A stretch of DNA of 58,751 nucleotides from Gammaproteobacteria bacterium (lineage in GTDB: Bacteria; Pseudomonadota; Gammaproteobacteria; Steroidobacterales; Steroidobacteraceae), in the NCBI GenBank assembly GCA_028870705.1, contig JAGWPD010000252.1:1-58751 (forward strand), written 5' to 3'. Under the pieces are notes generated by a model that worked only from the letters and a program-made list of their open reading frames with translations, ran no database searches and was not told the DNA's origin. Positions 33,762-58,497 of this stretch are shown here, one piece after another (position 1 is the stretch's first letter; each line of letters starts with the position of its first letter). Position numbers and translations under genes: made by a program.

Positions 33762-33979
33762 GCGGCTGCAATCGCGACCAGACCATGGCATTCGAGCGAA
33801 ACTCCCGCCCGGAGCGGTGGATCCGATGGGACCGACTACTCGGACGAGTAGACTTGCCCGCTGGCGGCGCCGATAACCTGCTTACGAGTCCATTACGGAC
33901 GAACTGCTAATCTGCCGGCCGTGCGTGGACCATTCCAAGACCGGTTCGCAAGTGGATCACCGCAGTAGCAGCAGCCGAC

Positions 33980-41300: not shown

Positions 41301-41426
41301 TCGGCGATGCAGCAGCCGCTGGCGATTGCGATCATCTCGGGTCTGATGGTGCAGATGCCGCTCGTGCTGATCGCGATGCCCATTGCGTTTGCGCACTGGA
41401 CTCGCCGCCAGACGCTTGCCCCCTGA
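38373..41426 (+). CDS. RND efflux permease (1017 aa), not of the CusA/CzcA TM4 signature type
   Basis: GTGA overlap with the adaptor. 12-TM RND architecture. TM4 reads 'AAIGLIVDDAIVMIEQIE', which is HAE-like and not the 'DFG..DGA..VEN' or CusA 'AIGAMVDAA' forms. Confidence 0.85.
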   Translation: MNWAQWASHHRRSILFLLAVIAIGGVISGLNLPVALFPQVSFPRIAVAIEAGDQPAAQMVTLVTRPVEQAIKAVPGLRSIRSTTSRGSAEMSLNFDWGLDMAVSTLQVQAEINRVLPALPAGTSFTVRRMNPNVFPVAAYSLTSNSLDLVKVREIAQYELVPLLSSITGVAQVEVHGGAAREVRVDADPGRLASYGLSMDDVAKSLSAANVLAAVGRTADRHKLLLALSDTQLTTPDQVRQVIVRSGPDGAIRLADVARVFETAAPSWTVVTADGHPAVIVQVKQQIDGNSVQIIRDVNRALSAYASRLPPDFKISNWYDQSELILGSAHSVFEAVLIGVALAGLVLFVFLRNLKITLITLIVVPAVLAATTLLLSVLGMSFNIMTLGGMAAAIGLIVDDAIVMIEQIERRLHSDGEEGRAQIRAAAWEFLKPLAGSSAATIVIFIPLAFLTGVTGAFFKALSLTLSAALIASFLVAYFVIPLLAEFVITSKEAQAEAHTGPALAWVLGRYRALFERLRARPWLLVPVIAAFLLLGGFAYTQVGSGFMPTQDEGGFVFDYLSPPGTSLQDTDAMLQQVEAILRSTPEVLTYSRRTGLQLGGGLTESNTGDIFVRLKPLPRRDIQVVMAEIRERVGRTIPGLDVETALLMEDLIGDLTAVPQPIEVKIFGDDPAALNAIAPQVAKAIAVVPGVTEIRDGVIIAGDALDIRVDPLKAGLEGLDPDQVTRQVKAFLSGTVATQLQNLDRSIDVRVWLPPEQRATPNDIRALRLTAPDGHLVPLGRVAQLQLVTGQPQITRENLKPMTAVTARIEGRDLGSTIADVKAVLAKSTLFSQGTYYELGGLYAQQQIAFRGLIGVLIAAFALVFFLLLYLYERFTLALLIIAMPLLAMAAVFMGLWLTGIELNISAMMGMTMVVGIVTEIAIFYFSEYELLVDDGMTHEAAIIAAGSNRLRPIAMTTIAAILALLPLALGLGQGSAMQQPLAIAIISGLMVQMPLVLIAMPIAFAHWTRRQTLAP

Positions 41427-41513: not shown

Positions 41514-44500
41514 CTACACTCGCCAGGCACGGCGACGGACGAGCAGGAACGCGGCGGGCAACACGAACATCGTCAGCAGCGTGGCGCTGATCATGCCGCC
41601 GACCATGGGTGCCGCGATGCGGCGCATGACCTCCGAACCCGTGCCGCTGCCCCACATGACGGGCAGGAGTCCCGCGATGATCACCGCAACCGTCATGGCC
41701 ACTGGCCGCACGCGCAGCGCCGCGCCTTCGATGATGGCGGTGCGCAGCGCCTCGGCCGCACCGCTCCGCTGTCCGCCTGCGGCATTGACGGCCTGGTTGA
41801 TGTAGACCAGCATGACGACGCCGATCTCGGCGGCCACGCCCGCCAGCGCGATGAACCCGACCGCCGCTGCCACCGACAGGTTGTAGCCCAGCAGGTAGAT
41901 CAGCCAAAGCCCCCCCACCAGTGCGACCGGCAGCGTCGCCATGATCAGCATTGCATCGTCGAGCCTGCGGAAAGTCAGGTACAGCAGCACGAGGATGATC
42001 AGCAAGGTGGCCGGCACGACCAGCCGCAGGCGCGCCGCCGCCCGTTGCAGAAACTCGAATTGCCCCGACCACGCCAGGGCATAACCGGGCGGCAGCCTGA
42101 CGTCCCGTGCCACCGCCGCCTGCATGTCGTGCACGGCAGCGCTGAGCGCACGACCATGCAGGTCGACATAGACCCAGCCGGAAAGTCGGCCGTTTTCGCT
42201 CTTGAGCATCGATGGTCCGTCGCTGATGGAGATCGTGGCGACCTCTCCCAGGGTGATGGCCGCGCCGCTCGGCGTCACCACCGGCAACGCGCGCAGCTTG
42301 GGCACCGAGTCGCGCAACTCCCGTGGATAACGCACGTTGATGGGAAAGCGTTGCCGCCCCTCCACGGTCTCGCCGATATTGTCGCCGCCGATCGCTCCGG
42401 ACACGATGCTCTGTACGTCCGCAATGTTGAGCCCGAAGCGTGCCGCCGCTGTCCGATCGATGCGCACATCGACATAACGTCCGCCCCGCAGCCGTTCGGC
42501 GAACGCCGAGGTGACGCCCGGCACGGCACTCACCGCGCGTTCCACCTGCAGCGCCAGGCGATCGACCTCCGCCAGATCGGGTCCCGCGACCTTGATGCCC
42601 ACCGGGCTCTTGATGCCCGTGGCGAGCATGTCGATCCGGTTGCGGATTGGCGGCACCCAGATGTTGGTCAACCCCGGCACCTGCACCAGATGATCGAGCT
42701 GCTGCACGAGTTTCTCCGGTGTCAGGCCCGCCCGCCATTGGTCACGGGGCTTGAACTGGATGGTGGTTTCGAACATCTCCAGCGGCGCGGGATCGGTGGC
42801 CGTCTCGGCACGGCCCGCTTTGCCAAAGACGCTGGCCACTTCGGGCACGGTCTTGATCAGGCGGTCCGTCTGCTGCAGCAGCTCGCCGACCTTGCCGGCT
42901 GAAATGCCGGGCAACGCCGAAGGCATGTAGAGCAGATCGCCCTCGTCGAGCGGCGGCATGAACTCCGCGCCGATGTGCTGCAGGGGGTAGAGGCTCGCGA
43001 GCAGGATCAGCGCCGCCAGAGCGAGTGTGGAGCGGGGCCAGGCGAGCGCGCGGGCGAGCGCTGGCCGATAGAGCGCCACCAGCGCGCGGTTCAGGGGGTT
43101 GTGCTGTTCCCGCGGAATGCGACCGCGGATGAGGTACCCCATGAGCACCGGGACCAGCGTCACCGCCAGGCCCGCGGCGGCGGCCATCGCGTAGGTTTTG
43201 GTGAAGGCCAGGGGCGAGAACAGTCGCCCCTCCTGCGCCTCCAGCGTAAACACCGGCATGAACGAGAAGGTGATGATCAGGAGCGAGGTGAACAGCGCCG
43301 GACCGACCTGGGCGGCCGCCTCGCCAATCACCTGCCAGCGTGCCTCGCCCTCGAGCCTTGCATCGGCATGCTCCCTGTGCCACGCCTCGATGTGCTTGTG
43401 CGCGTTTTCGATCATGACCACTGCGGCGTCAACCATCGCGCCGATGGCAATGGCGATGCCGCCCAGCGACATGATGTTCGCGTTGACACCCTGGTAGTGC
43501 ATGACGATGAAGGCCATCAGGATGCCCAGTGGCAGCGTCACGATGGCCACCAGCGCGGAGCGCAAATGGAACAGGAACAGGACGCATACCAGCGCGACGA
43601 CGATGAATTCCTCGATGAGCTTGCCACGCAGGTTGTCGATCGAGCGCGCGATGAGCCCGGATCGATCGTAGGTCGGCACGATCTGCACTCCGGCAGGCAG
43701 GCTGGCCTTGAGCGCGGCGAGCCTGGCCTTGACCGCTTCGATGGTAGCGAGCGCATTCTTGCCGCTGCGCATGATGATGATGCCGCCCGCCACCTCCCCT
43801 TCGCCATTGAGCTCGGTGATGCCGCGCCGCATCTCGGGGCCCAGCCGCACCTGCGCGACATCACCCAGGGTCACCGCCACACCCGCGGCAGTGGACTTCA
43901 GCGGTATCTCCTGAAAGTCGCCGAGCGATGTCAGGTAGCCCGAGGCCCGCACCATGTACTCCGCCTCGCCGAGTTCAAGTACCGAGCCGCCGGTCTCCTG
44001 GTTGCCTTGCTGGACGGCCTCGATCACCTGCGCGGGGGTGATGCTGAACGCCCGCAATCGCGCCGGATCCAGCACGATCTGGTACTGGCGCACCATGCCG
44101 CCCACCGAGGCGACTTCCGCCACATTGGGCACGGTCTTGAGTTCGTATTTCAGGAACCAGTCCTGCAGGGCGCGCAGCTCGGACAGATCATGTTGCCCGC
44201 TGCGGTCAACGAGCGCGTATTCGTAGACCCAGCCGAGCCCGGTCGCATCGGGCCCGAGCGAAGCGCGCGCCTGCGCCGGGAGCCGGGATTGCACCTGGTT
44301 CAGGTACTCGAGCACGCGCGAGCGCGCCCAGTAAGGGTCGGTGCCGTCCTCGAAGAGGATGTACACGTACGAATCGCCGAACATCGAATAGCCGCGCACG
44401 GTGCGCGCGCCCGGAACCGAGAGCATGGTGGTGGCCAGCGGGTAGGTCAGCTGGTTCTCCACGATCTGCGGCGCCTGGCCCGGATAGGTCGTGCGGATGA

Positions 44501-44642
44501 TCACCTGCACGTCCGAAAGGTCCGGCAGCGCATCGAGCGGCGTGCGCAGCATGGCCCAGAATCCCCAGGCCGCGAGCAACGCGCTTGCCAGCAGCACCAG
44601 GTAGCGGTTGGCAATCGAGCGGCGAATCAGCGCGGCGATCAC
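41514..44642 (-). CDS. cusA: CusA-type heavy-metal (Cu/Ag) RND efflux permease
   Basis: The GTG start at 44642 (GTGA overlap with cusB) gives '[18 protein letters not shown]', matching the CusA N-terminus. TM4 reads '[21 protein letters not shown]'. The ORF extension to 45128 is spurious. Confidence 0.9.
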
Positions 44643-45925: not shown

Positions 45926-47190
45926 GGTGCGTTGCTCCCGGTCGAGAGAAAGTTGAGATAAGCCCAGGCGCGCCCGTAGCTGCCGTAGATCTCGGCAAAG
46001 GAGAGTTCGAGATTCAGCTGGTCGCCAAGCACGGACAGCGCCGTGCTGGCGTCGGTGGTGCCCGCGGCCAATCCGGCCAGAGCGGCGGCTGATCGCGCCC
46101 GCGCCAGCGGCAACCGCTGCTGTTCATAGAGCGCCACGCGATCGCGCCCCGCCTGCCAGTCGGCCAGCGTCGCGGCAAGTTCCGCCGTGTGCATCCGGAA
46201 TGCGGCCTGGCGGTCCGCTTCGAGCTGCCGCACCGTGGCGCGTCGCGCCGCGATCACGGGATCGGCGCGTGAGGCCGCAAACAACGGCAGGCTCACACGC
46301 ACTTCCACGGAGACCATGTTCGAGTAGCCCGGCCCGCGCTGACCATAGGAGACTTCGCTGCTCCAGTCGGGTCGCCGGTCGGCCGTGGCCACCGCGATCG
46401 CCGCCTTCGCCTCCGCCACCCGCGCATCGAAGGCGCGCAGTTCCGCGTGCCGATGCACGCCGGCCTGCAGCGACGAAGCACTGGCCGGCAAGACCTCGAA
46501 GGATGGCGGCGGCGCCAGCGGTCGAGCAGCCAACGTGCCAATCCACCGGGCGAGTCCGGCGCGCGCGGCAAGCGCCTGCTGATGCGCAACCAGCAGCCGA
46601 TCGGCAAGTTCGGCCGCGCTCGACTGCGCTTCGAGCAGCTCGGCGCTGGCGGCCCGGCCATTGGCCAGGGCATTGCGTGCGAGCGTCACCTGCAGTTCGT
46701 AGTTGGGTTGCAGGGCCGCCAGTGCCTGCACGGCCTGTTCGGTCGTGAGCACCGCGATCCACGCCTGTGCCGTCGAGAGCGAAACGTCCAGCCGGGTTTG
46801 CGCAGCTTCCGTCAGCGCCGCGACCGCGCGAGCCTGCGCCATCGACCGCTCGGCGCTGCGGCGGTGGGCGTTGCCGAACGACTGCATGACGCCGACTTTC
46901 CGCATCGTCATGAAGTCGCGGTCCACGCTCCACGCATCCGGTCCATTGACCGGGAGATTCTCCACGCCGGCGATGATTTCCGGCGCCGGCAGGCGACCGG
47001 CGGCGACCGCCTCCGCATTGGCGCTGTCGGCCGCCGCCAGGCGCGCTTGCAACTGCGGCGCCGATCGATTCGCCTCGGTCACGGCTGCTTCGATCGTCAG
47101 GGGTTCATTCGTGAGGGGATCAGGGGCCGCCGCCGCGGCGAGACCTGCCCAAAGGCACGAGGCCCAGGTAATCCATCGAACTGCGCTCAT
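45922..47190 (-). CDS. cusC: CusC/CzcC-type outer-membrane factor (no lipobox)
   Basis: Signal peptide 'WASCLWAGLAAAAA'. TolC-family helical repeats. First gene of a translationally coupled CBA triplet. Confidence 0.8.
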   Translation of the reverse strand: MSAVRWITWASCLWAGLAAAAAPDPLTNEPLTIEAAVTEANRSAPQLQARLAAADSANAEAVAAGRLPAPEIIAGVENLPVNGPDAWSVDRDFMTMRKVGVMQSFGNAHRRSAERSMAQARAVAALTEAAQTRLDVSLSTAQAWIAVLTTEQAVQALAALQPNYELQVTLARNALANGRAASAELLEAQSSAAELADRLLVAHQQALAARAGLARWIGTLAARPLAPPPSFEVLPASASSLQAGVHRHAELRAFDARVAEAKAAIAVATADRRPDWSSEVSYGQRGPGYSNMVSVEVRVSLPLFAASRADPVIAARRATVRQLEADRQAAFRMHTAELAATLADWQAGRDRVALYEQQRLPLARARSAAALAGLAAGTTDASTALSVLGDQLNLELSFAEIYGSYGRAWAYLNFLSTGSNAP

Positions 47191-47305
47191 CGGATCTGCT
47201 CCAGCGTAAGTGCCGAATGCGCCACGCCGCTGCGCACCTGCACAAGGGCCGGGGCGAGTGGTGGACGTGGAAATTCCGGTTCAGCCAGGAACCGGCGAGC
47301 AGAAC

Positions 47306-47704
47306 TTAAAGACGGAGCCGACGAGTCCGCAGATAGAGGGGCCGGCGGTCTGTCGAGGCCCAGCCGTCATCAATTGATCCGCCGACCCGGAGCGTTTGCT
47401 CTGCAGCGCCCGCCGCGACGAGGCTGAAGCCGGGATCGGGCTGCAATTTGTCGGCCGCAGCATACCGGGGCCCCGGACGCGCCTGGACGCAGACAGCCGC
47501 AGCAATGGCCGTATCCGGCGCCGCAAAACAACAATCGCCGGTTGCCTGCGCTCCCCGTGGCCGCGAATCCGGCACGCCACATGGAGCGCGCTGTTCGCCC
47601 TGGCAACAATCGCGCGCGGCTTGCCGCGGGGCGCACAGCACCACGGGCGCCGCCACGAGCAGCGCGGCGAGTACGCACAGGGCTCTCAGGCTACGGCCGA
47701 ACAA
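47306..47704 (-). CDS. Small secreted Cys-rich protein of unknown function (two DCC motifs)
   Basis: The TTG start at 47704 is preceded by GGAGAGGA. Signal peptide 'RSLRALCVLAALLVAAPVVLCAP'. Motifs 'DCCQGEQRAPCG' and 'GDCCFAAP'. C-terminus 'LYLRTRRLRL'. Confidence 0.5.
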   Translation of the reverse strand: MFGRSLRALCVLAALLVAAPVVLCAPRQAARDCCQGEQRAPCGVPDSRPRGAQATGDCCFAAPDTAIAAAVCVQARPGPRYAAADKLQPDPGFSLVAAGAAEQTLRVGGSIDDGWASTDRRPLYLRTRRLRL

Positions 47705-47811
47705 GGGCTCCGTCCTCTCCAGAATCGGGTACTGACCCGCGACAGTGTAGCTCAGCCAGGCCCATCGGCAACCGTGACGCAGTACCGGATTGCCGCATGC
47801 GCCTTGCAACG

Positions 47812-48828
47812 TCAGTCCACTTTACGGCTCGACCAATGGATGTGCGCGATTCGCCAGGTCTGCGAATCCCGATTCAGGACCATGGTCTCGGTGGTGATGA
47901 GTTTTTCCGGCTTCGCGCCAGCGGCAGTGAGTTCGGATTCGGTGGCCACCCACGCCTGATTTCCAGCCGCCTGACCGGCGCGCGAAAGCACGCGCACTCT
48001 TGCGCCTTGCAGGAATCGGGCATCGGCCTGAAGATGGTGCGACGCATATTCCTGGCGCGACCGCTCGACCTGGCCTGCTTCGTAAATCAGGACCGTCGGC
48101 TCGAGCAGCCTCGCGGCTGCGGCCGTGTCGCCGCCAGCAAGCAGCCTCTGGAAATCGTCCACCGTAGCGGCAGCCCCGGCCGCAGTCGGCGCCACCGGGC
48201 GAGCCTTGCCAGGCTGCGCGAGTCCTGCAGTGCCGGACGAAGGCTCTGGCCCCGCTTCCATGGCGCCTGCTTCGCCATGGTCGTCCATTTCCATGCCAGC
48301 GTGGTGGTGGTGGTGACCGCCTTCACCGGAATTGATGATTTCCTGGTACGCGGCCGGCGTGAGCCCTGGCAGTTTCTGCAGGAAGGCGACCATCGACCAG
48401 ATGCGCTCGTCGTCGTGTGTCAGACCCCACGCCGGCATGCCCGACATCTTGAGACCGTGCTTGATGATCCAGAATTGCTGCGCGGCGCTACGGTGCGCGC
48501 CGGGCTCGGCGAGTTTCGGCGGCTGCGGATAGAGACCGACGCGCAATTCCGTGTCGCCCATGCCTGGCGCCAGGTGACATCCGGTGCACATTTCCGCGTA
48601 CTCGCCGGCGCCGCTCGCTATGAAACTCGCATCCCCGAGATTGCCCGGGACGCTGATGTCGCCTGTCTGCCGCCCGATATAGCGCTCGCGCGCAGTCTGC
48701 ACGAGCCGCGCCGTCAGCCCCCAATGAGCATCATCCGCGGAAAAATTGAAGCGCCCGGAGTACACGCCAGCCGCAACGAGCACCGCGAGCGCTGCCAGGA
48801 CCAGGGCAGTGATTCTGAAAGCCTTCAT
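47812..48828 (-). CDS. Membrane-anchored or secreted class-I cytochrome c fused via a His/Met-rich linker to an NTF2/SnoaL-like (DUF4440-like) domain
   Basis: Haem motif 'CTGCH' (48574-48588) and axial Met context 'SGMPAWG'. Linker 'GGHHHHHAGMEMDDHGEAGAMEAG' (His run at 48301-48315). C-terminal part 'LLEPTVLIYEAGQVERSRQEYASHHL...WRIAHIHWS'. Confidence 0.75.
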   Translation of the reverse strand: MKAFRITALVLAALAVLVAAGVYSGRFNFSADDAHWGLTARLVQTARERYIGRQTGDISVPGNLGDASFIASGAGEYAEMCTGCHLAPGMGDTELRVGLYPQPPKLAEPGAHRSAAQQFWIIKHGLKMSGMPAWGLTHDDERIWSMVAFLQKLPGLTPAAYQEIINSGEGGHHHHHAGMEMDDHGEAGAMEAGPEPSSGTAGLAQPGKARPVAPTAAGAAATVDDFQRLLAGGDTAAAARLLEPTVLIYEAGQVERSRQEYASHHLQADARFLQGARVRVLSRAGQAAGNQAWVATESELTAAGAKPEKLITTETMVLNRDSQTWRIAHIHWSSRKVD

Positions 48829-48838
48829 GAGTCACCTT

Positions 48839-50149
48839 TCATCTGGTTTGAATGATCCGCCGGACGGGCCCGCCAAAATCAGGATCGGAACTCACTCGTC
48901 GCGCCACCGTGCCCGCCGGCGCCTGGTACCAACCCGGATCGCGGTAGTCATTCGCCGCCAACCCGCGACGCACCTTGACGGTCGTGAACATGCCGCCCAT
49001 CTCGAGGGCGCCGTACGGTCCAGTGCCGCCCATCATGGGCAGAGTGTTGGCGGGACCCGGCAGCTTCATCGCTTCGACGTGTTCCTGGTGGGCCGACATG
49101 CCATCGGCCCCCATGTTCATCATTCCCGGGAGGAGCGCTTCGAGGTCGGCGTCCGATGCGGCGATACGTGCGCCGAGCACGTTGGGGATGCCGTGGCCCA
49201 TCGCGTTCATCGTGTGATGCGCCATGTGACAGTGCAGCGCCCAGTCGCCGGGGACTGCTACGAACTCGAGGTCGCGGGTCTGGCCGACACCGATGAGTTC
49301 GGTCACTTCCGGGCGCCAGCGTTGGCGGGGCCAGCGCCCGCCATCGGAACCGGTCACGTCGAACTGGTGGCCGTGCAGATGGATGGGATGGTTGTACATC
49401 GACAGATTCCCGATCCGTATGCGCACCCGCTCGCCGGCGCGGACTACCAGCGGATCGATTGCCGGGAACACCTTGCTGTTGAAAGTCCACAGGTCGAAAT
49501 CCAGCATGATCGATGGATCGGGGCGGTACGTTCCCGGATGCAGCGACCAGTTGTGCAGCAGGAAGGCGAAATCCCGGTCAATCGGCTCGGGTTCGCCGCC
49601 TGCCGGGTGAATGATGAACAGCCCCATCATGCCCACCGCCATCTGCACCATCTCGTCGGCATGCGGGTGATACATGTGGGTGCCGTGCTGGCGGAGCGTG
49701 AACTCGTAGGCAAAAGTCTCGCCGGGCCCGATGGCCGGTTGCGACAACCCGCTGACGCCGTCCATGCCCGAGGGCAGGAGGATGCCGTGCCAGTGGATCG
49801 AGGTCGGCTCCGGCAGGCGATTGGTGACGAGAATCCGCACGCGGTCGCCTTCGACGGCTTCGAGGGTCGGCCCTGGAGTGCCGCCGTTGTAGCCCCAGCA
49901 CTTCGCTTTGCAGCCGGGCGCGAACTCGTGATCCACTTCTTCGGCCACGAGATGGAATTCCTTCACGCCTGCTTTCAGCGTGTAGGGCAGGCTCCAGCCG
50001 TTGAGCGTACGAACCGACCCCGTGGATCTTCCTGGCCGTGCCGGCGCCGCCCTGGCATCAGCCGCCGGGGTGCCCGCGGCCGCGTCCACGGCGGCGCCGA
50101 GGGCCGCGGTTCCGGCCGCCAGAATCAGCGAACGACGGGACACGGTCAT
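48839..50149 (-). CDS. Tat-exported multicopper oxidase (compact, 436 aa)
   Basis: Tat signal 'SRRSLILAAGTAALGA'. Copper ligand motifs 'IHWHG', 'YHPH', 'HPIHLHGH' and 'HCHMAHHTMNAM'. Met-rich C-terminal segment 'GMMNMGADGMS...LPMMGG...EMGGM'. Confidence 0.9.
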   Translation of the reverse strand: MTVSRRSLILAAGTAALGAAVDAAAGTPAADARAAPARPGRSTGSVRTLNGWSLPYTLKAGVKEFHLVAEEVDHEFAPGCKAKCWGYNGGTPGPTLEAVEGDRVRILVTNRLPEPTSIHWHGILLPSGMDGVSGLSQPAIGPGETFAYEFTLRQHGTHMYHPHADEMVQMAVGMMGLFIIHPAGGEPEPIDRDFAFLLHNWSLHPGTYRPDPSIMLDFDLWTFNSKVFPAIDPLVVRAGERVRIRIGNLSMYNHPIHLHGHQFDVTGSDGGRWPRQRWRPEVTELIGVGQTRDLEFVAVPGDWALHCHMAHHTMNAMGHGIPNVLGARIAASDADLEALLPGMMNMGADGMSAHQEHVEAMKLPGPANTLPMMGGTGPYGALEMGGMFTTVKVRRGLAANDYRDPGWYQAPAGTVARRVSSDPDFGGPVRRIIQTR

Positions 50150-51582
50150 GGATGCGCTCCCGAAATCATTTCAATGGCCGCCAGCGGCTCGATGGCCGTG
50201 GCGCGGTCCGTGCGGCCGGCCAACCCCGGAAAGCGGCCGCCGGTGGCGCGCATCAGCCCGACGTAGGCACTCCAGTAATCGCGCAGTGCATCGACGTAGG
50301 CCTGGTAGCCTTCGTACTGATGTTGCTTGGCGGCGAGCAGTTCGATGGTGCCGATCAGCATGTAGTTCTGCTGTTTCTGGCTCTCGTCCACGATCGTGCG
50401 TTGCACGGGCAGCAGCTGGTCGCGGTAGATCGTCACCGCCTCGCGGGCCGCCGCGAGTGTCGCGAGCCGCGTCGCCACCTCATTGCCGATGGCGAGTTCC
50501 AGCGCGTGCACGTCGGCGGCCAGCACGTCCACGGTCGCCTGGGCGCGGCCTGCGGAACCATCACCCTGATTGAACAGCGGCAGACTCAGGCTCGCACCGG
50601 GACCTGCAATGGTCGCGGATGCAACGGCGCGATTGCCCCCGTCCTGCTCGACTCCCATGCCGATCGTCGTCTCGCCGAGCCAGCGCCAGCGGCGCGCGTG
50701 CCGGTTCGCGACCGACGCGAATCGCAGCGCTTCGCGGGCACTCATCAGGTCGAGGCGGTTGCCCAGCGCCACTTCCCGCAGTTTCCCGCCGTCTGGAATA
50801 TCGGCCATGGGCGGCAGGAACTCGCCCACCAGATCGATCGACTCATCGCTCCCCGCGCCAAGCAGTGTCAGCAGGGCGTTGCGATCCGCCGTTTCCGCGG
50901 CGTGCGCGCGCAGCATCTCGGTCCGTGCCAGATCCTCGGCTTCGCGCATCCGCGCCAGCTGCAGCGCCGTGATATTCCCGGCATCGAACAGCTGTTGGGC
51001 GTAGTTCGCCGCGACCTGAGTGCTCCTGGCGATGCGATCCCGCATCGAGGCCACGGTCCGGCTGCCGACGTACCGGATCTGCGAGGTCCTCACGTCGGCT
51101 TCCAGGTCGAGCAGCTCGCGCGCCACCTGTTGCTCCGCGAGCAGCACGCGGCTTTCACCGCCCGCCTTGCGAAAGCGCGCGAACAGGATTTCGGTGAAAT
51201 TCTGAGACAGGCTCCAGTCGACCTTGCGGGCGCCTGCGCCACCGCTGAGGCGTGCATACCCCAGGGTCGGATTGGACAAGCGGACCGCGTCGTAGAGATC
51301 CGCCCGGACGAAACCGAGCCGGGCGTAGATCGCAGCGACGCGCGGATTCCTGAGCAAGGCGATTTGCACCGCGGCGTCCGCATCCACTGGCCGGGCGAGC
51401 AGGTCCTTCAGCAGCGCATCCGGAGCGCCCCGACCCCGGTCTGCAGCGGCGACCGCGGCGGACACGGCCGAGCGGCTCGCATACAGGCCGGATGCACTGT
51501 CGCGAAGCTGCTCCACGCGCGGGGTCGCGCAGCCGGCCAGTGCCAGCAGTGCGACGGGCACCACCAATTTCGTTCCGATCAC
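50146..51582 (-). CDS. TolC-family outer-membrane lipoprotein, translationally coupled to the multicopper oxidase
   Basis: Lipobox 'LLALAGCATP'. OMF helical repeats. ATGA overlap with the MCO start. No adjacent RND or adaptor of its own. Confidence 0.8.
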   Translation of the reverse strand: MIGTKLVVPVALLALAGCATPRVEQLRDSASGLYASRSAVSAAVAAADRGRGAPDALLKDLLARPVDADAAVQIALLRNPRVAAIYARLGFVRADLYDAVRLSNPTLGYARLSGGAGARKVDWSLSQNFTEILFARFRKAGGESRVLLAEQQVARELLDLEADVRTSQIRYVGSRTVASMRDRIARSTQVAANYAQQLFDAGNITALQLARMREAEDLARTEMLRAHAAETADRNALLTLLGAGSDESIDLVGEFLPPMADIPDGGKLREVALGNRLDLMSAREALRFASVANRHARRWRWLGETTIGMGVEQDGGNRAVASATIAGPGASLSLPLFNQGDGSAGRAQATVDVLAADVHALELAIGNEVATRLATLAAAREAVTIYRDQLLPVQRTIVDESQKQQNYMLIGTIELLAAKQHQYEGYQAYVDALRDYWSAYVGLMRATGGRFPGLAGRTDRATAIEPLAAIEMISGAHP

Positions 51583-51620
51583 CGGCGACGGCTCCTGCGA
51601 TGGCGTCGATCAATCCCTCA

Positions 51621-51647
51621 GGTACGCGCCGCGGCCGGCAATCCCTC
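51621..51647 (-). promoter_or_regulatory. Candidate ECF-type promoter for the TolC-MCO-...-cusCBA array
   Basis: The minus strand reads GAGGGATTG (51647-51639), N12, CGTACC (51626-51621), about 38 nt upstream of the start at 51582. Confidence 0.45.
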
Positions 51648-51651
51648 ACCC

Positions 51652-51678
51652 GAGGGATGGGTAGAATGGCCGCGTACA
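51652..51678 (+). promoter_or_regulatory. Candidate ECF-type promoter for the cnrYXH-like operon
   Basis: The plus strand reads GAGGGATGG (51652-51660), N12, CGTACA (51673-51678), 33 nt upstream of the ATG at 51712. It mirrors the minus-strand motif. Confidence 0.45.
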
Positions 51679-51711
51679 TGGCATGAGCAGACTGGCAGCG
51701 GAGTGAGGCTT

Positions 51712-51996
51712 ATGTTGCAGGAAGAGTTGAGCGCACTGGCCCGGGCGCCCCTGGATCGCTCCCTGGACGGACTCGAGTCCGGTATCTGGCGGGTGGTCGA
51801 GGCGAAGACGAGCGAGCGTCGGGCCTATCGGGGAATCGTCACGATGCAACTCGTGATCCTGGCCATCGGTGTGGCCGGTAGCCTCGGCTTCGGCCGCCAA
51901 TGGGCCACGACCCACAATGCCGCGGGACCTCACGGCGTATTTTCCCCCTACACACGCCTGGTGGCGTCCAATCTGCTGGTTGGCGAGCCGCGATGA
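51712..51996 (+). CDS. CnrY-like small single-pass membrane anti-sigma factor (94 aa)
   Basis: A cytoplasmic N-terminus of about 45 aa, one TM segment ('IVTMQLVILAIGVAGSLGFG') and a short periplasmic tail. ATGA overlap with the next gene. Size, topology and position match CnrY (95 aa). Confidence 0.6.
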   Translation: MLQEELSALARAPLDRSLDGLESGIWRVVEAKTSERRAYRGIVTMQLVILAIGVAGSLGFGRQWATTHNAAGPHGVFSPYTRLVASNLLVGEPR

Positions 51997-52427
51997 AAAA
52001 GGACGCGGTCGCGCTGGTGATCCTGACTTTCGCTGTTGCGGTACTGGGCGGTTGGCTCGGCGTACGGCTCGGCCAACGGGAGCTGACTTCCAACCTGGGT
52101 CTCGACCAGGTGCTGCATCATGACCTGTCGCTCACCAAAGGACAGGAACGGCGGATCGAAGAACTTGAAGCCAGCTTCTCCGTGAAGCGCAAGTCGCTGG
52201 AATCCGAGATGCGGGCAGCCAACCGCGAGCTGGCGCAGGCCATGGTGACGGAGCATCGGATGAGCCCTGCGGTCGAGCAGGCCATCGGCCACTTCCATGT
52301 GGCGATGCGTCAGCTCCAGGAACTGACGACCGCACACGTACTGAGCATGCGCGAGGAGTTGACCCCGCCCCAGGCTGCAATCTTCGATCGGTCGGTCGTC
52401 AGGGCCCTCGACGCGGACGGACCGTGA
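51993..52427 (+). CDS. CnrX-like membrane-anchored periplasmic metal sensor (144 aa)
   Basis: An N-terminal TM anchor, then a gapless alignment (offset 4) to CnrX as I recall it: 'RAAN..LA', 'AHVLSMR' versus 'VHVFEMR', and 'FDRSVVRAL' versus 'YDRVLIDAL'. Confidence 0.75.
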   Translation: MKKDAVALVILTFAVAVLGGWLGVRLGQRELTSNLGLDQVLHHDLSLTKGQERRIEELEASFSVKRKSLESEMRAANRELAQAMVTEHRMSPAVEQAIGHFHVAMRQLQELTTAHVLSMREELTPPQAAIFDRSVVRALDADGP

Positions 52428-52999
52428 GTGAGCCGGCGGCGCCCGCTGACGTGCGCCTGGCGGCAGCGGCACGACACGGGGATCGCGCCGCTTTCGAAAC
52501 GCTGGTCTCGCTCCACAAAGCCAGTCTTTACAGGCTCGCCCGCCGTTCCACCGGCAACGGGGATGATGCCTACGATATCGTGCAGGACACCTTCGTCTCC
52601 GCGTGGCTCGCACTCGCGAGATTCAATCCGGCGCATGCCTTCGGGCCCTGGATCCGGACCATCCTGCTCAACAAATGCCGCGACTTCTCGCGGCGCCGCG
52701 CGGTCCGCAACCGGATTCTCCAATGGTGGACGTCCGGCGTTTCGCCACCGGGTGAAGCGGCGTGCGCCGACGTCGAGGCAGACTCCGCACTACAGGACCG
52801 CGCCCGCCTGAGGTCACTGGATCAGGCCATTGCGAATCTGCCCAGCCGCTACCAGGTGCCGCTTATACTGACGGCCCTGCAGGGACTGAGTCACCGCGAG
52901 GCGGCCGACCAGCTCGGGTTGACGCCCAAGGCGGTGGAACTACGCGTTCACCGCGCCCGCAAGCGACTCCAGGAACTGTTGCGAGGGGACGAGCCCTGA
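52424..52999 (+). CDS. ECF sigma-70 family factor, CnrH-like (191 aa)
   Basis: GTGA overlap with the sensor gene. Region 2 'DIVQDTFVSAWLALARFNPAHAFGPWIRTILLNKCRDFSRRR'. Region 4 'LILTALQGLSHREAADQLGLTPKAVELRVHRARKRL'. Confidence 0.88.
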   Translation: MSEPAAPADVRLAAAARHGDRAAFETLVSLHKASLYRLARRSTGNGDDAYDIVQDTFVSAWLALARFNPAHAFGPWIRTILLNKCRDFSRRRAVRNRILQWWTSGVSPPGEAACADVEADSALQDRARLRSLDQAIANLPSRYQVPLILTALQGLSHREAADQLGLTPKAVELRVHRARKRLQELLRGDEP

Positions 53000-53020
53000 C
53001 TCCGCCCGAGGGATTGACCC

Positions 53021-54967
53021 ATGTGGCTTGAGGCCGAGCGCACACGACGGCGGAAATGCGCCGTGCTCGTCGTCATGCTCGTGGCCGTGCCGACTTTTGC
53101 GCGGGCGGACGATGATGATGCGTCCAGGCTCGAAGAGGTGGTGGTCACGGCCACGCGTTCGCCGGGCCTGATCCGCGATGAGCCGCTGCACGTCGAGACC
53201 GTGCCGACCGAGGAGATCGAGGAGAACCTGACGATCCGGCCGGGGAACCTCACTGCGCTCCTGAAGGAGCTGCCGGGCGTGCGCATTCAAGCGTCGGCGC
53301 CGGGACTGGGCGGTGCCGGCATGCAGCTGCGCGGGATGCCGGCGCGCGACACGCTGGTCCTGACCGACGGCTTGCCCCTGCTGGGCGCCGAGCCCGATGC
53401 CTTCGGACTGCTGCAGACTCCACCGCTCGATCTGGCCCGCGTGGAGGTCATCAACGGGGCCGTTTCCGCGCTCTATGGAGGTTCCGCGCTCGGCGGTGTG
53501 CTGAATCTGGTCTCGCGCACGGCGGACTCCGAGCCGGGGATTCTCGCCAACGTGACCGCCCGCGGCGGTGAGGACCTGGTCGGATTCCTTACCCACAAGG
53601 GCGGCTCGCCGTGGAGCGAGACGCTCACGGTCGGTATGCACGATCAGTCGCGCGTGGATGTCAACGGCGACGGCTGGGCGGACCTGCCCGGCTATCGCCG
53701 GTATACGCTGCAGCCGCGAGTCTGGTGGCGCGGGACCCAGGGACGCTCCCTGTTGCTCACGGCCGGCATTGTCGATGAGGATCGGAGCGGCGGAACGGTA
53801 GCCAATGGGGTGCTGCCGGACGGCCGCGTTTTTCCGCAACACCTGCGCACCCGGCGTTTCAACGCGGGAGCGGTCAGCCAGCTTCCCATCACGGACGCCG
53901 ACACGCTCAGCGGCCGCTATTCGCTGACCTCGACTCACCTCGACCGAAGCTTCGGCAGCCAACGGATCGAATCGACGCAGACGACGGCGTTCGCCGAGGA
54001 AGCAGTGAACGGCTCATTCGGGGCGCATCGCTGGGTGGCGGGCGTGGCCTTCGAGCACGATGGGCTCAAGGTGCCGGCTGTCCCCGGCGTCGGCTACGCC
54101 TACGATGTGCCAGCGGTGTTTGCCCAGGACACCTACACGGCGGCCCCATGGCTGGTCGTAGCCGGGAGCGTGCGCGTGGACGCCCACAATGACTACGGGA
54201 CATTCGTGAGCCCGCGCGCATCTGCGCTGTGGCGGGCACCGCACAGCGCGTGGAGCCTGCGCGCCTCGATCGGGGCGGGATACTCCGCGCCGACTCCGCT
54301 GCTCGATGACATCGAGGCAACGGGATTTGGTCCCCTGTCGCCGCTGCGCGGCCTGCACGCCGAGCGCGCGACGACGGCCTCCATCGATGGCAAATGGGCC
54401 GACGATGGCTGGGACATCAACGTGAGCATATTCACCTCGGAGATCCGCGATCCGCTTGCCGTCGTGCCGACGGGCGGCCAGTTGCGGATCATCAATGCCC
54501 CGGGTCCCCGGCGCGCCCCGGGCGCGGAGCTCCTGATCGGCTATGTGGCCGGGCCTCTGCACGCGATTGCGTCGTTCAGTTCGATTCACGCCACGCAAGC
54601 CGATCTGACGGGCGCCCGTCAGGGTGTGCCGCTCGTGCCACGCGAAACCGCCTCCCTGGATGCGATCCTCGAGAGCGAACAGCGCGGTCGCATTGGCTTT
54701 GAGCTCGATTACACGGGGCCGCAGACGCTGGAGAACGACCCGTTTCGTGCCACGAGCCCGGCTTTCGTTGCGGTCAACGCGCTGGCGGAGATCCGTTTCA
54801 AGGGCATCGGGGTATTCCTCAACGCGCTCAATCTCACGAACGTGCGGCAGACCCAATTCGATCCGCTGCTTCGCCCCGGCCCGGGGCCCGGCGGCAACCC
54901 GATCACCGACGTGTGGGCGCCGCTGGACGGGCGGACCTTCAATCTCGGCATCCGCCTGGAGTTATAG
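53021..54967 (+). CDS. TonB-dependent outer-membrane receptor (648 aa), lacking an N-terminal signalling extension
   Basis: Signal peptide 'VLVVMLVAVPTFARA'. The plug starts immediately ('RLEEVVVTATRSPG...LRGMPARDTLVLTDGLPL...VEVINGAVSALYGGSALGGVLNLV'). The gene begins 21 nt after the sigma gene. Confidence 0.88.
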   Translation: MWLEAERTRRRKCAVLVVMLVAVPTFARADDDDASRLEEVVVTATRSPGLIRDEPLHVETVPTEEIEENLTIRPGNLTALLKELPGVRIQASAPGLGGAGMQLRGMPARDTLVLTDGLPLLGAEPDAFGLLQTPPLDLARVEVINGAVSALYGGSALGGVLNLVSRTADSEPGILANVTARGGEDLVGFLTHKGGSPWSETLTVGMHDQSRVDVNGDGWADLPGYRRYTLQPRVWWRGTQGRSLLLTAGIVDEDRSGGTVANGVLPDGRVFPQHLRTRRFNAGAVSQLPITDADTLSGRYSLTSTHLDRSFGSQRIESTQTTAFAEEAVNGSFGAHRWVAGVAFEHDGLKVPAVPGVGYAYDVPAVFAQDTYTAAPWLVVAGSVRVDAHNDYGTFVSPRASALWRAPHSAWSLRASIGAGYSAPTPLLDDIEATGFGPLSPLRGLHAERATTASIDGKWADDGWDINVSIFTSEIRDPLAVVPTGGQLRIINAPGPRRAPGAELLIGYVAGPLHAIASFSSIHATQADLTGARQGVPLVPRETASLDAILESEQRGRIGFELDYTGPQTLENDPFRATSPAFVAVNALAEIRFKGIGVFLNALNLTNVRQTQFDPLLRPGPGPGGNPITDVWAPLDGRTFNLGIRLEL

Positions 54968-55083
54968 CGCGCGCTGTCGGGCGCAGCGGCCTCGGCAACT
55001 CACGATGTGATGATTTGCGAACCGGCTTCCTCTTACACTAGCGACAGTGTCGGCCACGGGCCCACGGCTCGAGCGGTTCTCCA

Positions 55084-55632
55084 ATGACAAATCTGAACTC
55101 CAAGCTGGAGCGCCTCGCTGAACAGACGCTGTTTGCGAGCCGTTGGCTGATGGCGCCTTTCTATCTGGGAATGGTCCTTGCCTTGGTGCTGCTGTTGATC
55201 GTGTTCGGCCGCGAACTCGCCGCCGAGTTCGCGCATGTCCAGACCGTGAATGCCGAAAGCGCCGTCCTGCTGGCGCTGTCGTTGATCGATTTGTCCCTGA
55301 CCGGCAACCTGCTGCTGATCGTGATGTTTTCGGGATATGAGAATTTCGTATCGCGGATGCAGATCGGCGATCACGAGGATCGGCCCAGCTGGATGGGCAC
55401 GGTTGATTTTTCCGGCATGAAAATGAAGTTGATTGCATCGATCGTCGCGATCAGCGGCATCGCCTTGCTGCGTACGTTTCTGCCGCTGAGCGATCCGGAC
55501 TCGAAGATGGACAGCCAGCGCATCGGCTGGATGGTCGCCATTCATCTCACGTTTGTCATCTCAGGCGTGCTATTGGCGGTCATGGACTGGATTACATCCA
55601 AGGCCGAAGCGCGCGGTCCCACCGGGCATTGA
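55084..55632 (+). CDS. yqhA: UPF0114/YqhA-family inner-membrane protein
   Basis: 'FASRWLMAPFYLGMVLAL', 'LLIVMFSGYENFVS', 'KLIASIVAISGIALLR' and 'VAIHLTFVISG' run collinear with E. coli YqhA as I recall it. Confidence 0.85.
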   Translation: MTNLNSKLERLAEQTLFASRWLMAPFYLGMVLALVLLLIVFGRELAAEFAHVQTVNAESAVLLALSLIDLSLTGNLLLIVMFSGYENFVSRMQIGDHEDRPSWMGTVDFSGMKMKLIASIVAISGIALLRTFLPLSDPDSKMDSQRIGWMVAIHLTFVISGVLLAVMDWITSKAEARGPTGH

Positions 55633-55709
55633 AAGGCCGGCGATCGAGGCTTCACAGCCCGGACCGCCAGCGGGTAGCTGAGGCTCGGCCCGGCCGCGCG
55701 CGGGCGCCG

Positions 55710-56111
55710 TTACGGCGCCCCGAGCGCTCCGGCGCCCGAAGCGAGCGCACCGATGATCGGACAAGGCGCCTGCGGACCGGACGCCTCGCAATCGGCGAGC
55801 AGGTGCCCAAGCACCCGCTCCATCCGTTGCAGCGCCGCGAGCTTGTCACGCACGTTCTTGAGGCGCGCGCCGGCAATCTGCCGCACTTCGGCCCGGGTGC
55901 CGCCGTCCTCGAGCCGCAACAGCTCGCGGATTTCCACGAGCGCGAAGCCCAGTGCCTGCGCGTGCTTGATGAATTGGACGCGATGCAACACGCCGGACGA
56001 ATAGCGGCGCACGCCAGCCGCGGCCGGAACGGGCAGCAGTTGGCGCCGTTGGTAATAGCGGATCGTCTCGACCCCGACCCGCGCCGCCGCCGCGAGGCGC
56101 CCGATGGTCAT
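55710..56111 (-). CDS. MerR-family metalloregulator of the Hg-MerR clade, lacking the Cys82 equivalent
   Basis: 'MTIGRLAAAARVGVETIRYYQ...FIKHAQALGFALVEIRELLRLEDGGTRAEV...LADCEASGPQAPCPIIGAL' aligns with Tn501 MerR. The C117 and C126 equivalents are kept with identical spacing. An alternative upstream start lies at 56174. Confidence 0.85.
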   Translation of the reverse strand: MTIGRLAAAARVGVETIRYYQRRQLLPVPAAAGVRRYSSGVLHRVQFIKHAQALGFALVEIRELLRLEDGGTRAEVRQIAGARLKNVRDKLAALQRMERVLGHLLADCEASGPQAPCPIIGALASGAGALGAP

Positions 56112-56177
56112 GCCGGCCGCGGCCACCCCGGTGCGCGCGGGCCGGTGCGAGCGGCGTTTGCTGGCTGCATGCATGGC

Positions 56178-56209
56178 TTGACTCCGTACCTTGGTACGGA
56201 GTTTAGAAT
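56178..56209 (+). promoter_or_regulatory. MerR-type promoter/operator: TTGACT, 20-bp spacer with a perfect dyad, TAGAAT
   Basis: -35 TTGACT at 56178-56183. Dyad ACTCCGTACC-TT-GGTACGGAGT at 56181-56202, containing the TCCGTAC-N4-GTACGGA core. -10 TAGAAT at 56204-56209. Confidence 0.8.
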
Positions 56210-56247
56210 CCCAGGCATCGATCGGGCAAGCACTCAAGGACAAGCTC

Positions 56248-58497
56248 ATGAACTGTTGCACGGGCTCCCATCCGGAACATGCGCACGGCCAACGTGCGCA
56301 CGCGGATTCTCCGACCGAGCGCGATCCGGTCTGCGGCATGCTCGTCGACCCCGCGGCTGCAGCAGCGCAACCGCAGCACGACGTGGTCTACACCTGCCCC
56401 ATGCATCCCGAGGTGCGGCAGATCGGGCCGGGCAATTGCCCGAAATGCGGCATGGCACTGGAACCCGTCGAGGCGACACCGTCGGACCGTCCGAGCGCTG
56501 AGCTCAGCGACATGACCTGGCGCCTGTGGATCGGCGCGGCCCTCACTGCGCCGCTGTTCGTCCTGGAGATGAGCGCCCATCTGCCTGCGCTGCAGCTCCA
56601 TCGCCTGGTCACACCGCAACTCTTGCAGTGGATCCAGCTGCTGCTTGCGACACCAGTGGTCCTGTGGGCGGGCTGGCCGTTCTTCGAGCGGGCTTTCGCC
56701 TCGGTACGGCATCGCTCCCTCAACATGTTCAGCCTGATTGGCCTGGGGGTCGCGGCAGCGTATCTCTACAGTCTGTTCGCTAGCGTTGCGCCTGCCCTGT
56801 TCCCGGCCGGACTGCGGAACGACCACGGCCTCATCCCGGTGTATTACGAGGCCGCCGCCGTGATCACGGTGCTCGTGCTGGTCGGGCAGGTGCTGGAGTT
56901 GCGCGCCCGCGAACACACGAGCAGCGCCATCCGGGCGCTCCTCAACCTCGCGCCCCGCAGCGCACGACGGTTGCGCGCCGATGGAACGGAGGAAGACATC
57001 GGTCTCGATCAGGTGCGCGCGGGCGATCGATTGCGCGTACGTCCGGGCGAATCCGTACCGGTCGATGGCACTGTCCTGGAAGGATCGAGCCCCGTCGATG
57101 AATCCATGGTCACGGGCGAATCGATGCCCGTGGAAAAGGCGCCGGGCGCCGGGCTCATCGGCGGGACGATCAATGGCACGGGAGCGATCGTCATGCGTGC
57201 CGACAAGGTCGGCGCCGATACCATGCTCGCGCGCATCGTGCAGATGGTCTCCGCGGCGCAGCGCAGCCGTGCTCCCATCCAGCGGCTCGCCGATGTCGTC
57301 TCGAGCTGGTTTGTCCCGGCCGTGATCGCAGCCGCGGCGCTGGCATTCACCGCCTGGCTCATCTGGGGTCCCGCGCCGGCATTGGCGTACGCGCTGGTCG
57401 CCGCCGTGTCGGTCCTCATCATTGCCTGCCCCTGCGCGCTGGGTCTCGCTACGCCCATGTCCATCATGGTCGGCGTCGGCAAGGGTGCGAGCGCAGGCGT
57501 GCTCATCAGGAACGCGGAAGCACTCGAGCGTTTCGAGAAGATCGACACACTGGTGGTCGACAAGACCGGCACGATCACCGAAGGCAAACCCCAGGTCGTT
57601 GCCGTGCGGGTCGCGCCGGGATTCGACCAGTCGACAGTGTTGACGCACGGTGCGAGCCTCGAACGCGCGAGCGAACATCCGTTGGCCGCGGCGATTGTCC
57701 GAGCCGCCCTCGAGCGCGGCAGCGAGTTGCTGCCGGTGGCGGACTTCGCCTCGGTCACGGGTCAGGGCGTCAAGGGCACGGTCGCCGGGGCACTCACGCT
57801 GATTGGCAACCGTCGACTGCTGGCCGACGCACGGCTGGACCCGCTCGCCCTGGAATCCGAGGCCGACGGGCTGAGGCGCGATGGTGCGACCGTGATGTTC
57901 GTCGCCATCCGCGGCCAGCTGGCCGGTCTCATCGCGGTCGCCGATCCCATCAAAGCCACGGCGCCCGCGGCGCTGGCGAGCCTGGCAGCCGATGGCGTCC
58001 GGATCGTGATGCTCACGGGCGACAACCGGATCACCGCCGCAGCCGTCGGCCGCAAACTGGGGCTGACTGAAATCGAAGCGGAAGTGCTGCCGGACCAGAA
58101 GCACGCCGTCGTGCGGCGCCTCCGCCGCGAGGGACGCGTGGTGGCGATGGCCGGAGATGGCGTCAACGACGCGCCGGCGCTGGCCGAAGCGGACATCGGC
58201 ATCGCCATGGGCACGGGCACGGACGTGGCCATGCACAGTGCAGGCGTCACGCTGGTGAAAGGAGACCTCGCCGGCATCGCCCGGGCCCGGGCCCTGAGCC
58301 GGGCGACGATGCGCAATATCCGGCAGAACCTGGTGCTGGCCTTCGTCTACAACGTGCTGGGAATCCCCGTTGCCGCCGGCGTGCTGTATCCGTTCTTTGG
58401 TCTGCTTTTGAGCCCGGCCATTGCAGCGGCAGCCATGTCGCTCAGTTCAGTGTCCGTGATCGGCAATGCGTTGCGGCTGCGCCGTACAAGGCTCTGA
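56248..58497 (+). CDS. copA: P1B-1 (Cu+/Ag+) P-type ATPase with a non-canonical N-terminal metal-binding region
   Basis: AAGGA lies 7 nt before the ATG at 56248. Motifs 'CPC' (TM4), '[14 protein letters not shown]' (N-x6-YN-x4-P), '[11 protein letters not shown]' (M-x2-SS), 'DKTGTITEG' and '[10 protein letters not shown]'. The N-terminus carries 'CC', a His-rich stretch, 'DPVCGM' and 'YTCPMHPEV...[10 protein letters not shown]' instead of a GMxCxxC ferredoxin-like domain. Confidence 0.9.

Follow-up and report, generated by a model that had tools for sequence, protein, structure and literature searches.

The standard example of an extracytoplasmic function (ECF) sigma factor under the control of a periplasmic metal sensor is CnrYXH of Cupriavidus metallidurans CH34 (pMOL28). 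In this system, as in NccYXH (31A), a small single-pass membrane protein, a membrane-anchored sensor and an ECF sigma factor are encoded in the same order by coupled genes, and a common type of promoter, GAGGG-N15-17-CGTAT, precedes both the module and the resistance operon. To our knowledge, CnrYXH is known for nickel and cobalt only. Periplasmic copper is sensed by the two-component systems CusRS and CopRS, each consisting of a histidine kinase and a response regulator. In this work, a module of three genes, designated here Y, X and H, was analysed within a window of 58,751 nucleotides, the whole of the Steroidobacteraceae sequence under study (assembly GCA_028870705.1, contig JAGWPD010000252.1). 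The gene order and the coupling are those of CnrYXH and NccYXH, X has the CnrX fold with four of the five metal ligands, and H is nearest to CnrH. We consider it fairly likely that the module is a CnrYXH-type switch, which senses periplasmic copper through X and signals through Y to release H.

Such a periplasmic copper switch is probably undescribed. The literature search gave no copper-linked CnrX/CnrH-like system; work in subscription journals may hold one. The role predicted for the module is the same as that of CusRS and CopRS, in which copper leads to the expression of multicopper oxidase, CopCD/CopAB and outer-membrane or efflux genes, but the machinery differs, with an ECF sigma factor and its membrane partners here. 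Copper-responsive ECF systems that control copper-related genes were described in Myxococcus xanthus, namely CorE/CorE2 and CarQ/CarR (PMC6851896). CorE is itself the cytoplasmic metal binder and works without an anti-sigma factor, and CarR is a multi-pass anti-sigma factor without a CnrX-like sensor (PMC6851896). Unlike the module described here, neither of them uses a periplasmic PF13801 sensor. Furthermore, in the 2019 review of metal-responsive ECF sigma factors, CnrH appears under Ni/Co only, and copper is represented only by CorE-type factors and CarQ (PMC6851896).

The sequence-only reading had described Y, X and H as three translationally coupled genes, and their coordinates (Table 1), lengths and overlaps were all reproduced. 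Y and X share an ATGA at 51993-51996 (read as cgcgATGAaaa), and X and H share a GTGA at 52424-52427 (read as accGTGAgtg). The identical X protein is found on two public contigs, where independent gene callers gave the same Y, X and H genes. The frame of Y is open upstream to 50038, and this stretch, opposite the gene of an outer-membrane factor (OMF), is a high-GC artefact. The three genes themselves are not such artefacts, because Y has about 112 full-length relatives and X has 48 close homologues. Megablast of 50000-56000 against plasmids gave no DNA match. The proposed CnrY/CnrX-like topology was also recovered by hydropathy, with one transmembrane segment in Y and an N-terminal anchor at residues ~6-24 of X, the same layout as in NccY and NccX.

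X is a true homologue of CnrX and NccX by its PF13801 match, its sequence and its fold. It scored 56.7 bits against Pfam PF13801 (Metal_resist; gathering score 29.2), and in the PDB sequence search its only significant solved relatives were NccX (E 7e-15) and CnrX (E 2e-12 to 3e-11), at an identity of only 34-35%. The AlphaFold (AF2) model of X has a predicted local distance difference test score (pLDDT) of 81 and contains helices at residues 3-44, 49-87, 92-121 and 125-140, in keeping with the anchored four-helix hooked hairpin of CnrX/NccX. With this model, the best 15 Foldseek matches were all CnrXs or NccX (template modelling score 0.77-0.86, root-mean-square deviation 2.0-3.3 Å), followed by a four-log gap; CpxP was found at rank 41 with E 0.69. 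These results bear on another explanation, according to which X is not the sensor but serves in the periplasm as a chaperone or metal buffer of the CpxP/Spy/ZraP kind, and the sigma factor answers general envelope stress through Y alone. PF13801 does lie within the CpxP-like superfamily, JGI labels some X homologues as "Spy/CpxP family protein refolding chaperone", and X has a weak LTXXQ match (17.8 bits, under the threshold). However, CnrXs are by far the better structural match, X is anchored in the membrane like CnrX and translationally coupled between Y and H, and the invariant columns of the X family are exactly the CnrX metal ligands. We regard the chaperone explanation as very unlikely.

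CnrX binds nickel and cobalt by His42, His46, Glu63, His119 and Met123. The ligand positions were compared in an alignment of 56 X sequences of the clade with NccX, a CnrX-like protein and CnrXs, in which four of the five CnrX ligands are retained in X. Residues H42, H115 and M119 of X correspond to H46, H119 and M123 of CnrX and are conserved in all 56 sequences, and E59, which corresponds to E63, is conserved in 55. The fifth position, H42 of CnrX, is D38 in X, and the clade members carry Asp (39), His (16) or Asn (1) there. In addition, three residues are specific for the clade, M73 (48/56), H102 (53/56) and M105 (53/56), in place of Leu, Glu and Ala in CnrX and NccX. The X model has the turn of the H2/H3 hairpin at residues 88-91 and places M73 opposite 102-106, at the same level of the hairpin as H102 and M105. 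Judging from the helix register of the model, M73, H102 and M105 might together make up a second, soft Met/His site. A crystal structure of copper-bound CnrX also exists (PDB 3EPV).

H contains only the Sigma70_r2 and Sigma70_r4_2 domains and thus is a two-domain ECF factor. Its closest solved relative is CnrH (4cxf) with 91 bits and E 7e-25, and the next ECF sigma factor follows about 25 bits behind, at 66 bits. The identity is 36% to a CnrH-like sigma factor over 180 aa (E 6e-25) and 36-39% to a CnrH-like protein and NccH. By its sequence and its predicted promoter, H is assigned to the CnrH type. The resemblance of X and H to CnrX and CnrH, which the sequence-only reading had proposed, was confirmed by formal alignments: the similarity is specific to Cnr/Ncc and is neither generic to ECF factors nor CpxP-like.

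The promoter evidence comes from the intergenic region of 129 bp between the start of the OMF gene (51582, minus strand) and the start of Y (51712), which the sequence-only reading had passed over. Two predicted promoters, P_Y and P_OMF (Table 1), stand there back to back as mirror images. The pattern GAGGGN{15,17}CGTA has only two matches in the window, and they are this divergent pair (51623-51647 on the minus strand and 51652-51676 on the plus strand). The comparison was extended to 17 independent related loci from Steroidobacteraceae-like metagenome-assembled genomes (MAGs), Sphingomonadales and Caulobacterales. The same motif lies 49-75 nt 5' of Y in nearly all of them, in L002, L006-L015, L017 and L022 a second, divergent copy is directed at copC, the OMF gene or a different copper gene, and the motif is also present after H in loci where copA follows H. 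The consensus of 27 aligned sites is GAGGG[A/G]t-N13-[t/c]GCGTA[T/C]. H is predicted to share its promoter specificity with CnrH, because the same motif precedes nccY and nccC in L001 (6602-6632 and 8068-8100) and cnrY and cnrC in the cnr-like locus L024 (5611-5643 and 6984-7016). The predicted H regulon in the window would include Y-X-H and the divergent operon of OMF, multicopper oxidase (MCO) and cytochrome c/SnoaL genes. This predicted regulon is related to the flanking genes, since CnrH-type promoters face both Y-X-H and the divergent OMF-MCO operon. The motif scan of the window gave no third H-type promoter before the TonB-dependent receptor (TBDR) gene, cusC or the ATPase gene, and the scan of 47000-56500 for sigma-70 promoters and terminators gave no promoter and no relevant terminator. 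Two further H-type motifs were seen in related loci, one before a 901-aa TBDR with PepSY genes in L002 (Sphingopyxis pMC4, 12809-12832) and one before small YHS, DUF2933 and ICMT genes in L007 (gammaproteobacterial MAG, 9563-9586). From host to host, the regulon seems to vary.

The orientation of the motif deserves a remark. According to PMC13492112, primer extension and run-off transcription have confirmed the -10 element CCGTATA of cnrYp. In Table 4 of the same paper, ECF291/CnrH has the ECF Hub consensus -35 xATACGC and -10 xxCCCTCA (PMC13492112). The reverse complement of the published ATACGC/CCCTCA matches the GAGGG-N16-GCGTAT motif, and this motif is found in the sense orientation before cnrY, nccY, nccC and all of the copper-type targets. 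At the sequence level, this suggests that the published ECF291 consensus is on the wrong strand, and back-to-back pairs of mirror-image promoters are probably the cause of the mis-assignment.

In the 17 loci, Y-X-H stands beside copCD, copAB, OMF-MCO(-CopCD), Csp, DUF411, DUF305 or a Cu-ATPase with CueR, and a Cnr-type pump stands beside the module in none of them. The nearest relatives of the locus are in Steroidobacteraceae and other gammaproteobacterial MAGs, and the genome search with the narrow X alignment gave 9 genome loci. In the closest relatives (L006/L021, L007/L020 and L015; X 71-75% identical), CopD-CopC-MCO-OMF are divergent from Y-X-H. The more distant loci (L002, L008-L012, L017 and L023) have copDC, the divergent Y-X-H and then copAB. 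Other neighbours of the module are a SnoaL gene and Csp in L019, DUF411 in L013, DUF305 and a Cu-ATPase with CueR in L003, genes from a copper-binding protein through to copAB in L022, and a Cus-like resistance-nodulation-division (RND) pump in L014. The two Cnr/Ncc loci, in contrast, have CnrY genes of PF17524 and CBA pumps. For ECF291, an adjacent complete CBA metal efflux operon was stated (Casas-Pastor et al. 2021, PMC7826278), whereas the module in the window is without one. That the module lies outside its usual context, as the sequence-only reading had put it, is right insofar as no Cnr pump is adjacent; it understates the case, since modules of this kind stand as a rule among copper genes throughout a large clade.

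These loci bear on the choice between copper and the metals of the described systems. The module might be a functional CnrYXH/NccYXH orthologue for periplasmic Ni(II)/Co(II) (or Zn/Cd), with the copper genes as mere neighbours in a multi-metal island. Indeed, four of the five nickel/cobalt ligands of CnrX, including Met123, are invariant or nearly so, the promoter type is that of cnr and ncc, and several pumps and ATPases make the window a mixed metal island. Against this, the H-type promoter stands directly before OMF-MCO, copCD and copAB operons in more than 10 independent loci, and no Ni/Co exporter (CnrCBA/NccCBA, CnrT or DmeF) is encoded at any of the 17 loci. His42 of CnrX is replaced by Asp in most clade members, which have gained M73, H102 and M105, and the identity of X to its Ni/Co counterparts is low, as given above. 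We therefore hold a nickel/cobalt function to be unlikely. In comparison with Cnr/Ncc, the predicted targets of the module are the OMF-MCO operon here and copCD/copAB elsewhere and not a CnrCBA/NccCBA pump, Y is outside PF17524, X and H are only 34-39% identical to their counterparts, and Steroidobacteraceae-like Gammaproteobacteria, Sphingomonadales and Caulobacterales take the place of Burkholderiaceae as hosts.

The third component is Y. By hydropathy, it has one transmembrane segment at ~42-60, which 41 residues precede on the cytoplasmic side and 34 follow in the periplasm. P-x-DRSL-x2-LE-x2-IW is the motif of its cytoplasmic N-terminus, and the periplasmic tail ends with FSP...L-x-S-x-LL-x-G; the consensus of the family is MLDDDLRRLAARPPDRSLDGLEADIWAGV..., then the transmembrane segment, then ...VFSPxxxLAPSTLLLG. 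In the AF2 model (pLDDT 81), helices are at 2-11, 21-68 and 79-90, the conserved DRSL motif is in the loop after the first of them, and the long second helix enters the membrane. The exhaustive profile search with Y gave 114 matches, ~112 of them full-length with 89-105 aa (clusters at 50% identity); a word-indexed search gave 3 proteins only. In every related locus examined, the Y gene is directly 5' of X. Y has the CnrY-type layout of ~95 aa, one transmembrane segment, a two-helix cytoplasmic N-terminus of roughly 45 residues, a short tail in the periplasm and position -2 from the sigma gene. A two-helix cytoplasmic domain was described for CnrY (PMC6851896), and the Y model is similar. The putative anti-sigma gene of ECF291 is also at position -2 from the sigma gene (PMC7826278), the same as Y.

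Y was matched against Pfam, NCBIfam and PDB sequences without any hit, including PF17524, and none of 78 Y-family members matched PF17524 or another Pfam family above noise. The profile hidden Markov model (HMM) built from 128 Y sequences scored NccY at 3.2 bits only, hhalign of the Y family against the CnrY family gave a probability of 2.2%, and pairwise BLASTP aligned 17 residues only. In the hhalign comparison, the last 12 columns alone align (LAPStLLlG with AASPFgLLIGk), which is suggestive and not significant. Foldseek with the Y model gave no match. No homology of Y with CnrY/NccY (PF17524) was detectable, all sequence and Foldseek tests being negative or insignificant. The match of Y with CnrY that the sequence-only reading had proposed thus stood for size, gene position and topology and failed in every sequence test against the CnrY/NccY family. 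Y is an analogue of CnrY in these three respects and not a demonstrable homologue.

We hypothesize that the copper switch works in the following way. X would be a membrane-anchored periplasmic four-helix sensor, in which the metal is bound at the His/Glu/His/Met site, with Asp in place of the fifth CnrX ligand, and the second soft Met/His cluster of the clade may join in metal binding. Binding of the metal would alter the contact between X and Y, whose cytoplasmic N-terminal helices would otherwise keep H at the membrane. The freed H would then bring RNA polymerase to the two back-to-back GAGGGA-N15-CGTAC promoters. P_Y would provide autoregulation of Y-X-H, maybe with read-through into the TBDR gene, and from P_OMF the operon of OMF, MCO and cytochrome c/SnoaL genes would be transcribed, and the transcript may run on into cusCBA. 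The part of Y as an anti-sigma factor that would bind both X and H, and the mechanism of release, are drawn by analogy with CnrY, and the limits of the transcripts are likewise inferred.

Several points weigh against the copper switch. Copper as the inducer is deduced from the gene neighbourhood and the placement of the promoters, and the retained ligand set of CnrX would suit Ni, Co or Zn too. The proposed M73/H102/M105 cluster was placed in the modelled hairpin from helix register alone. The likeness of H to CnrH makes it a putative member of ECF291. Moreover, the anti-sigma role of Y is assigned by analogy only, because Y has no significant similarity to CnrY or NccY and its model has no Foldseek match.

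Beyond this locus, we see even chances that the window holds one member of a large family of periplasmic copper sensors, with the CnrX fold and an added Met/His site, which work with new anti-sigma proteins of 90-100 aa, unlike CnrY in sequence, and CnrH-type sigma factors to control multicopper oxidase, CopCD, CopAB and OMF genes. X homologues were found in 44 plasmid records, 38 from alphaproteobacteria and 6 from Cupriavidus, and the NccY search gave 9 clusters at 90% identity, compared with ~112 Y-family clusters at 50% identity. By these counts of plasmid records and clusters, the copper-linked form seems to be more diverse than the Cnr/Ncc form. If the family is real, it would be a third periplasmic route of copper sensing in Proteobacteria beside CusRS/CopRS, and the Ni/Co systems Cnr and Ncc would represent one minor, specialised branch of a family that is tied mostly to copper. 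It would mean a new regulatory route for copper resistance, widespread on plasmids of Sphingomonadales and Caulobacterales and in MAGs from soil and wastewater. The exchange of a His ligand for Asp and the added Met73, His102 and Met105 would be a natural experiment on the metal specificity of the CnrX scaffold, and about 100 sequence clusters of small "hypothetical proteins" would gain an anti-sigma function. The sensor, sigma factor and promoter would also make a compact, probably orthogonal set for copper biosensors.

Table 1. Coordinates of the Y-X-H module, its predicted promoters and the neighbouring features in the window.
Feature	Position	Strand	Description
Y	51712-51996	+	94 aa, ATG start; single-pass membrane protein, predicted anti-sigma partner
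X	51993-52427	+	144 aa, ATG start; membrane-anchored periplasmic metal sensor, CnrX/NccX fold
H	52424-52999	+	191 aa, GTG start; CnrH-type ECF sigma factor
P_Y	51652-51678	+	Predicted promoter, GAGGGATGGGTAGAATGGCCGCGTAC; -35 GAGGGA 51652-51657, 15-nt spacer, -10 CGTACA 51673-51678; 34 nt before the Y start codon
P_OMF	51621-51647	-	Predicted promoter, GAGGGATTGCCGGCCGCGGCGCGTAC; GAGGGA-N15-CGTACC, mirror image of P_Y, ~39 nt before the OMF start (51582)
OMF	50146-51582	-	Predicted target gene 1; 478 aa, TolC-like lipoprotein, weak Pfam OEP match; divergent from Y
MCO	48839-50149	-	Predicted target gene 2; 436 aa, Cu-oxidase_3 and Cu-oxidase_2; 4-nt overlap with the OMF gene
Cytochrome c + SnoaL fusion	47812-48828	-	Predicted target gene 3; PF13442 and SnoaL_3; 10 nt after the MCO gene
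TBDR	53021-54967	+	648 aa; starts 21 bp after H
Cys-rich open reading frame	47306-47809	-	167 aa, between the cytochrome c/SnoaL gene and cusC
RND, CusA-type	41514-44642	-
RND, plus strand	38373-41426	+
MerR/CueR-like gene	55710-56174	-

The neighbours named by the sequence-only reading, a TBDR downstream and a copper oxidase/Cus array upstream, were found as described; the upstream genes encode a multicopper oxidase and a CusCBA-type pump and are on the minus strand. A third GAGGGA occurs at 53008-53013, between the H stop and the TBDR start. No CGTA stands at a fitting distance from it, and it may be the remnant of a promoter that predates the insertion of the TBDR and UPF0114 genes. The position of the TBDR invites the view that H and the TBDR form a FecI/FecR/FecA-like surface signalling or metal-uptake unit, in which the TBDR is the real target or sensor. 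Its gene begins directly after H (Table 1), with neither an ECF motif nor a terminator found between them, and L002 and L023 likewise carry TBDRs close to the module, the one in L002 with an H-type promoter at 12809. However, the TBDR has a Plug (52-160) and a barrel only and is without the N-terminal signalling (STN) domain, a FecR-like gene is absent, Y and X are not FecR-like, and H is CnrH-like and not FecI-like. This TBDR is found behind H only in L004 and L005, which are contigs of practically the same strain. It is missing in the closest relatives L006, L007, L015, L020 and L021, which have other genes after H, and in the window no H-type promoter stands directly before it. We consider a Fec-like unit extremely unlikely, and the TBDR is probably a strain-specific, incidental neighbour and not a conserved partner of the module. 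Read-through from P_Y into the TBDR gene is possible, because there is no terminator after H. An OprC/NosA-type copper TBDR was considered and rejected, since only generic TBDR models matched. Further downstream follow a UPF0114 gene, the MerR/CueR-like gene and a CopA-like P-type ATPase gene.

In the divergent operon, the OMF gene adjoins Y-X-H also in L006, L007, L015, L020 and L021, at an identity of 58-70%. MCO is 84-86% identical in L006, L007 and L015, shows similarity to the CopA subfamily, and has laccase-like MCOs as its PDB relatives. The OMF lipoprotein gene coupled to a compact multicopper oxidase of 434-436 aa is a variant of the cop operon (48839-51582 on the minus strand), which also occurs at L015 4876-7598, L020 6869-9564 and L021 6871-9602. 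The OMF is in the place of CopB, ahead of the oxidase rather than behind it. The cytochrome c/SnoaL gene holds the position of CopC-CopD in the closest relatives, its product has a His5/Met-rich linker, GEGGHHHHHAGMEMDDHGEAGAMEAG, and its SnoaL part shares 47% identity with the stand-alone gene directly 3' of H in L019. The Cys-rich open reading frame that follows, a possible gene, has a signal-like hydrophobic stretch and no Pfam match.

The absence of an adjacent Cnr/Czc-type pump, which had been noticed before, was confirmed with both RND proteins of the window. The minus-strand RND is of the CusA type, with 1528 bits to CusA versus 549 to ZneA, and in its adaptor a CusB-type domain is accompanied by a heavy-metal-binding domain. 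This RND is the heavy-metal RND nearest to the module, 7 kb off on the opposite strand, and no CBA pump operon follows H in the window. The plus-strand RND is under both the heavy-metal and the multidrug cut-offs of NCBIfam and thus is not clearly a heavy-metal pump. It belongs to a second operon of OMF, membrane fusion protein (MFP) and RND genes, which converges on the CusA-type operon; the genes of an OmpR-type response regulator and a histidine kinase are directly 5' of it, and the whole spans 33911-41426 on the plus strand. Positions 1-27000 are devoted to chromosomal sugar metabolism, with two GH65 phosphorylase/hydrolase genes, a beta-phosphoglucomutase fusion, large TBDRs and a major facilitator superfamily (MFS) symporter. 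Because this left half is ordinary chromosomal sugar metabolism, the metal-resistance region is taken to begin at ~28-30 kb.

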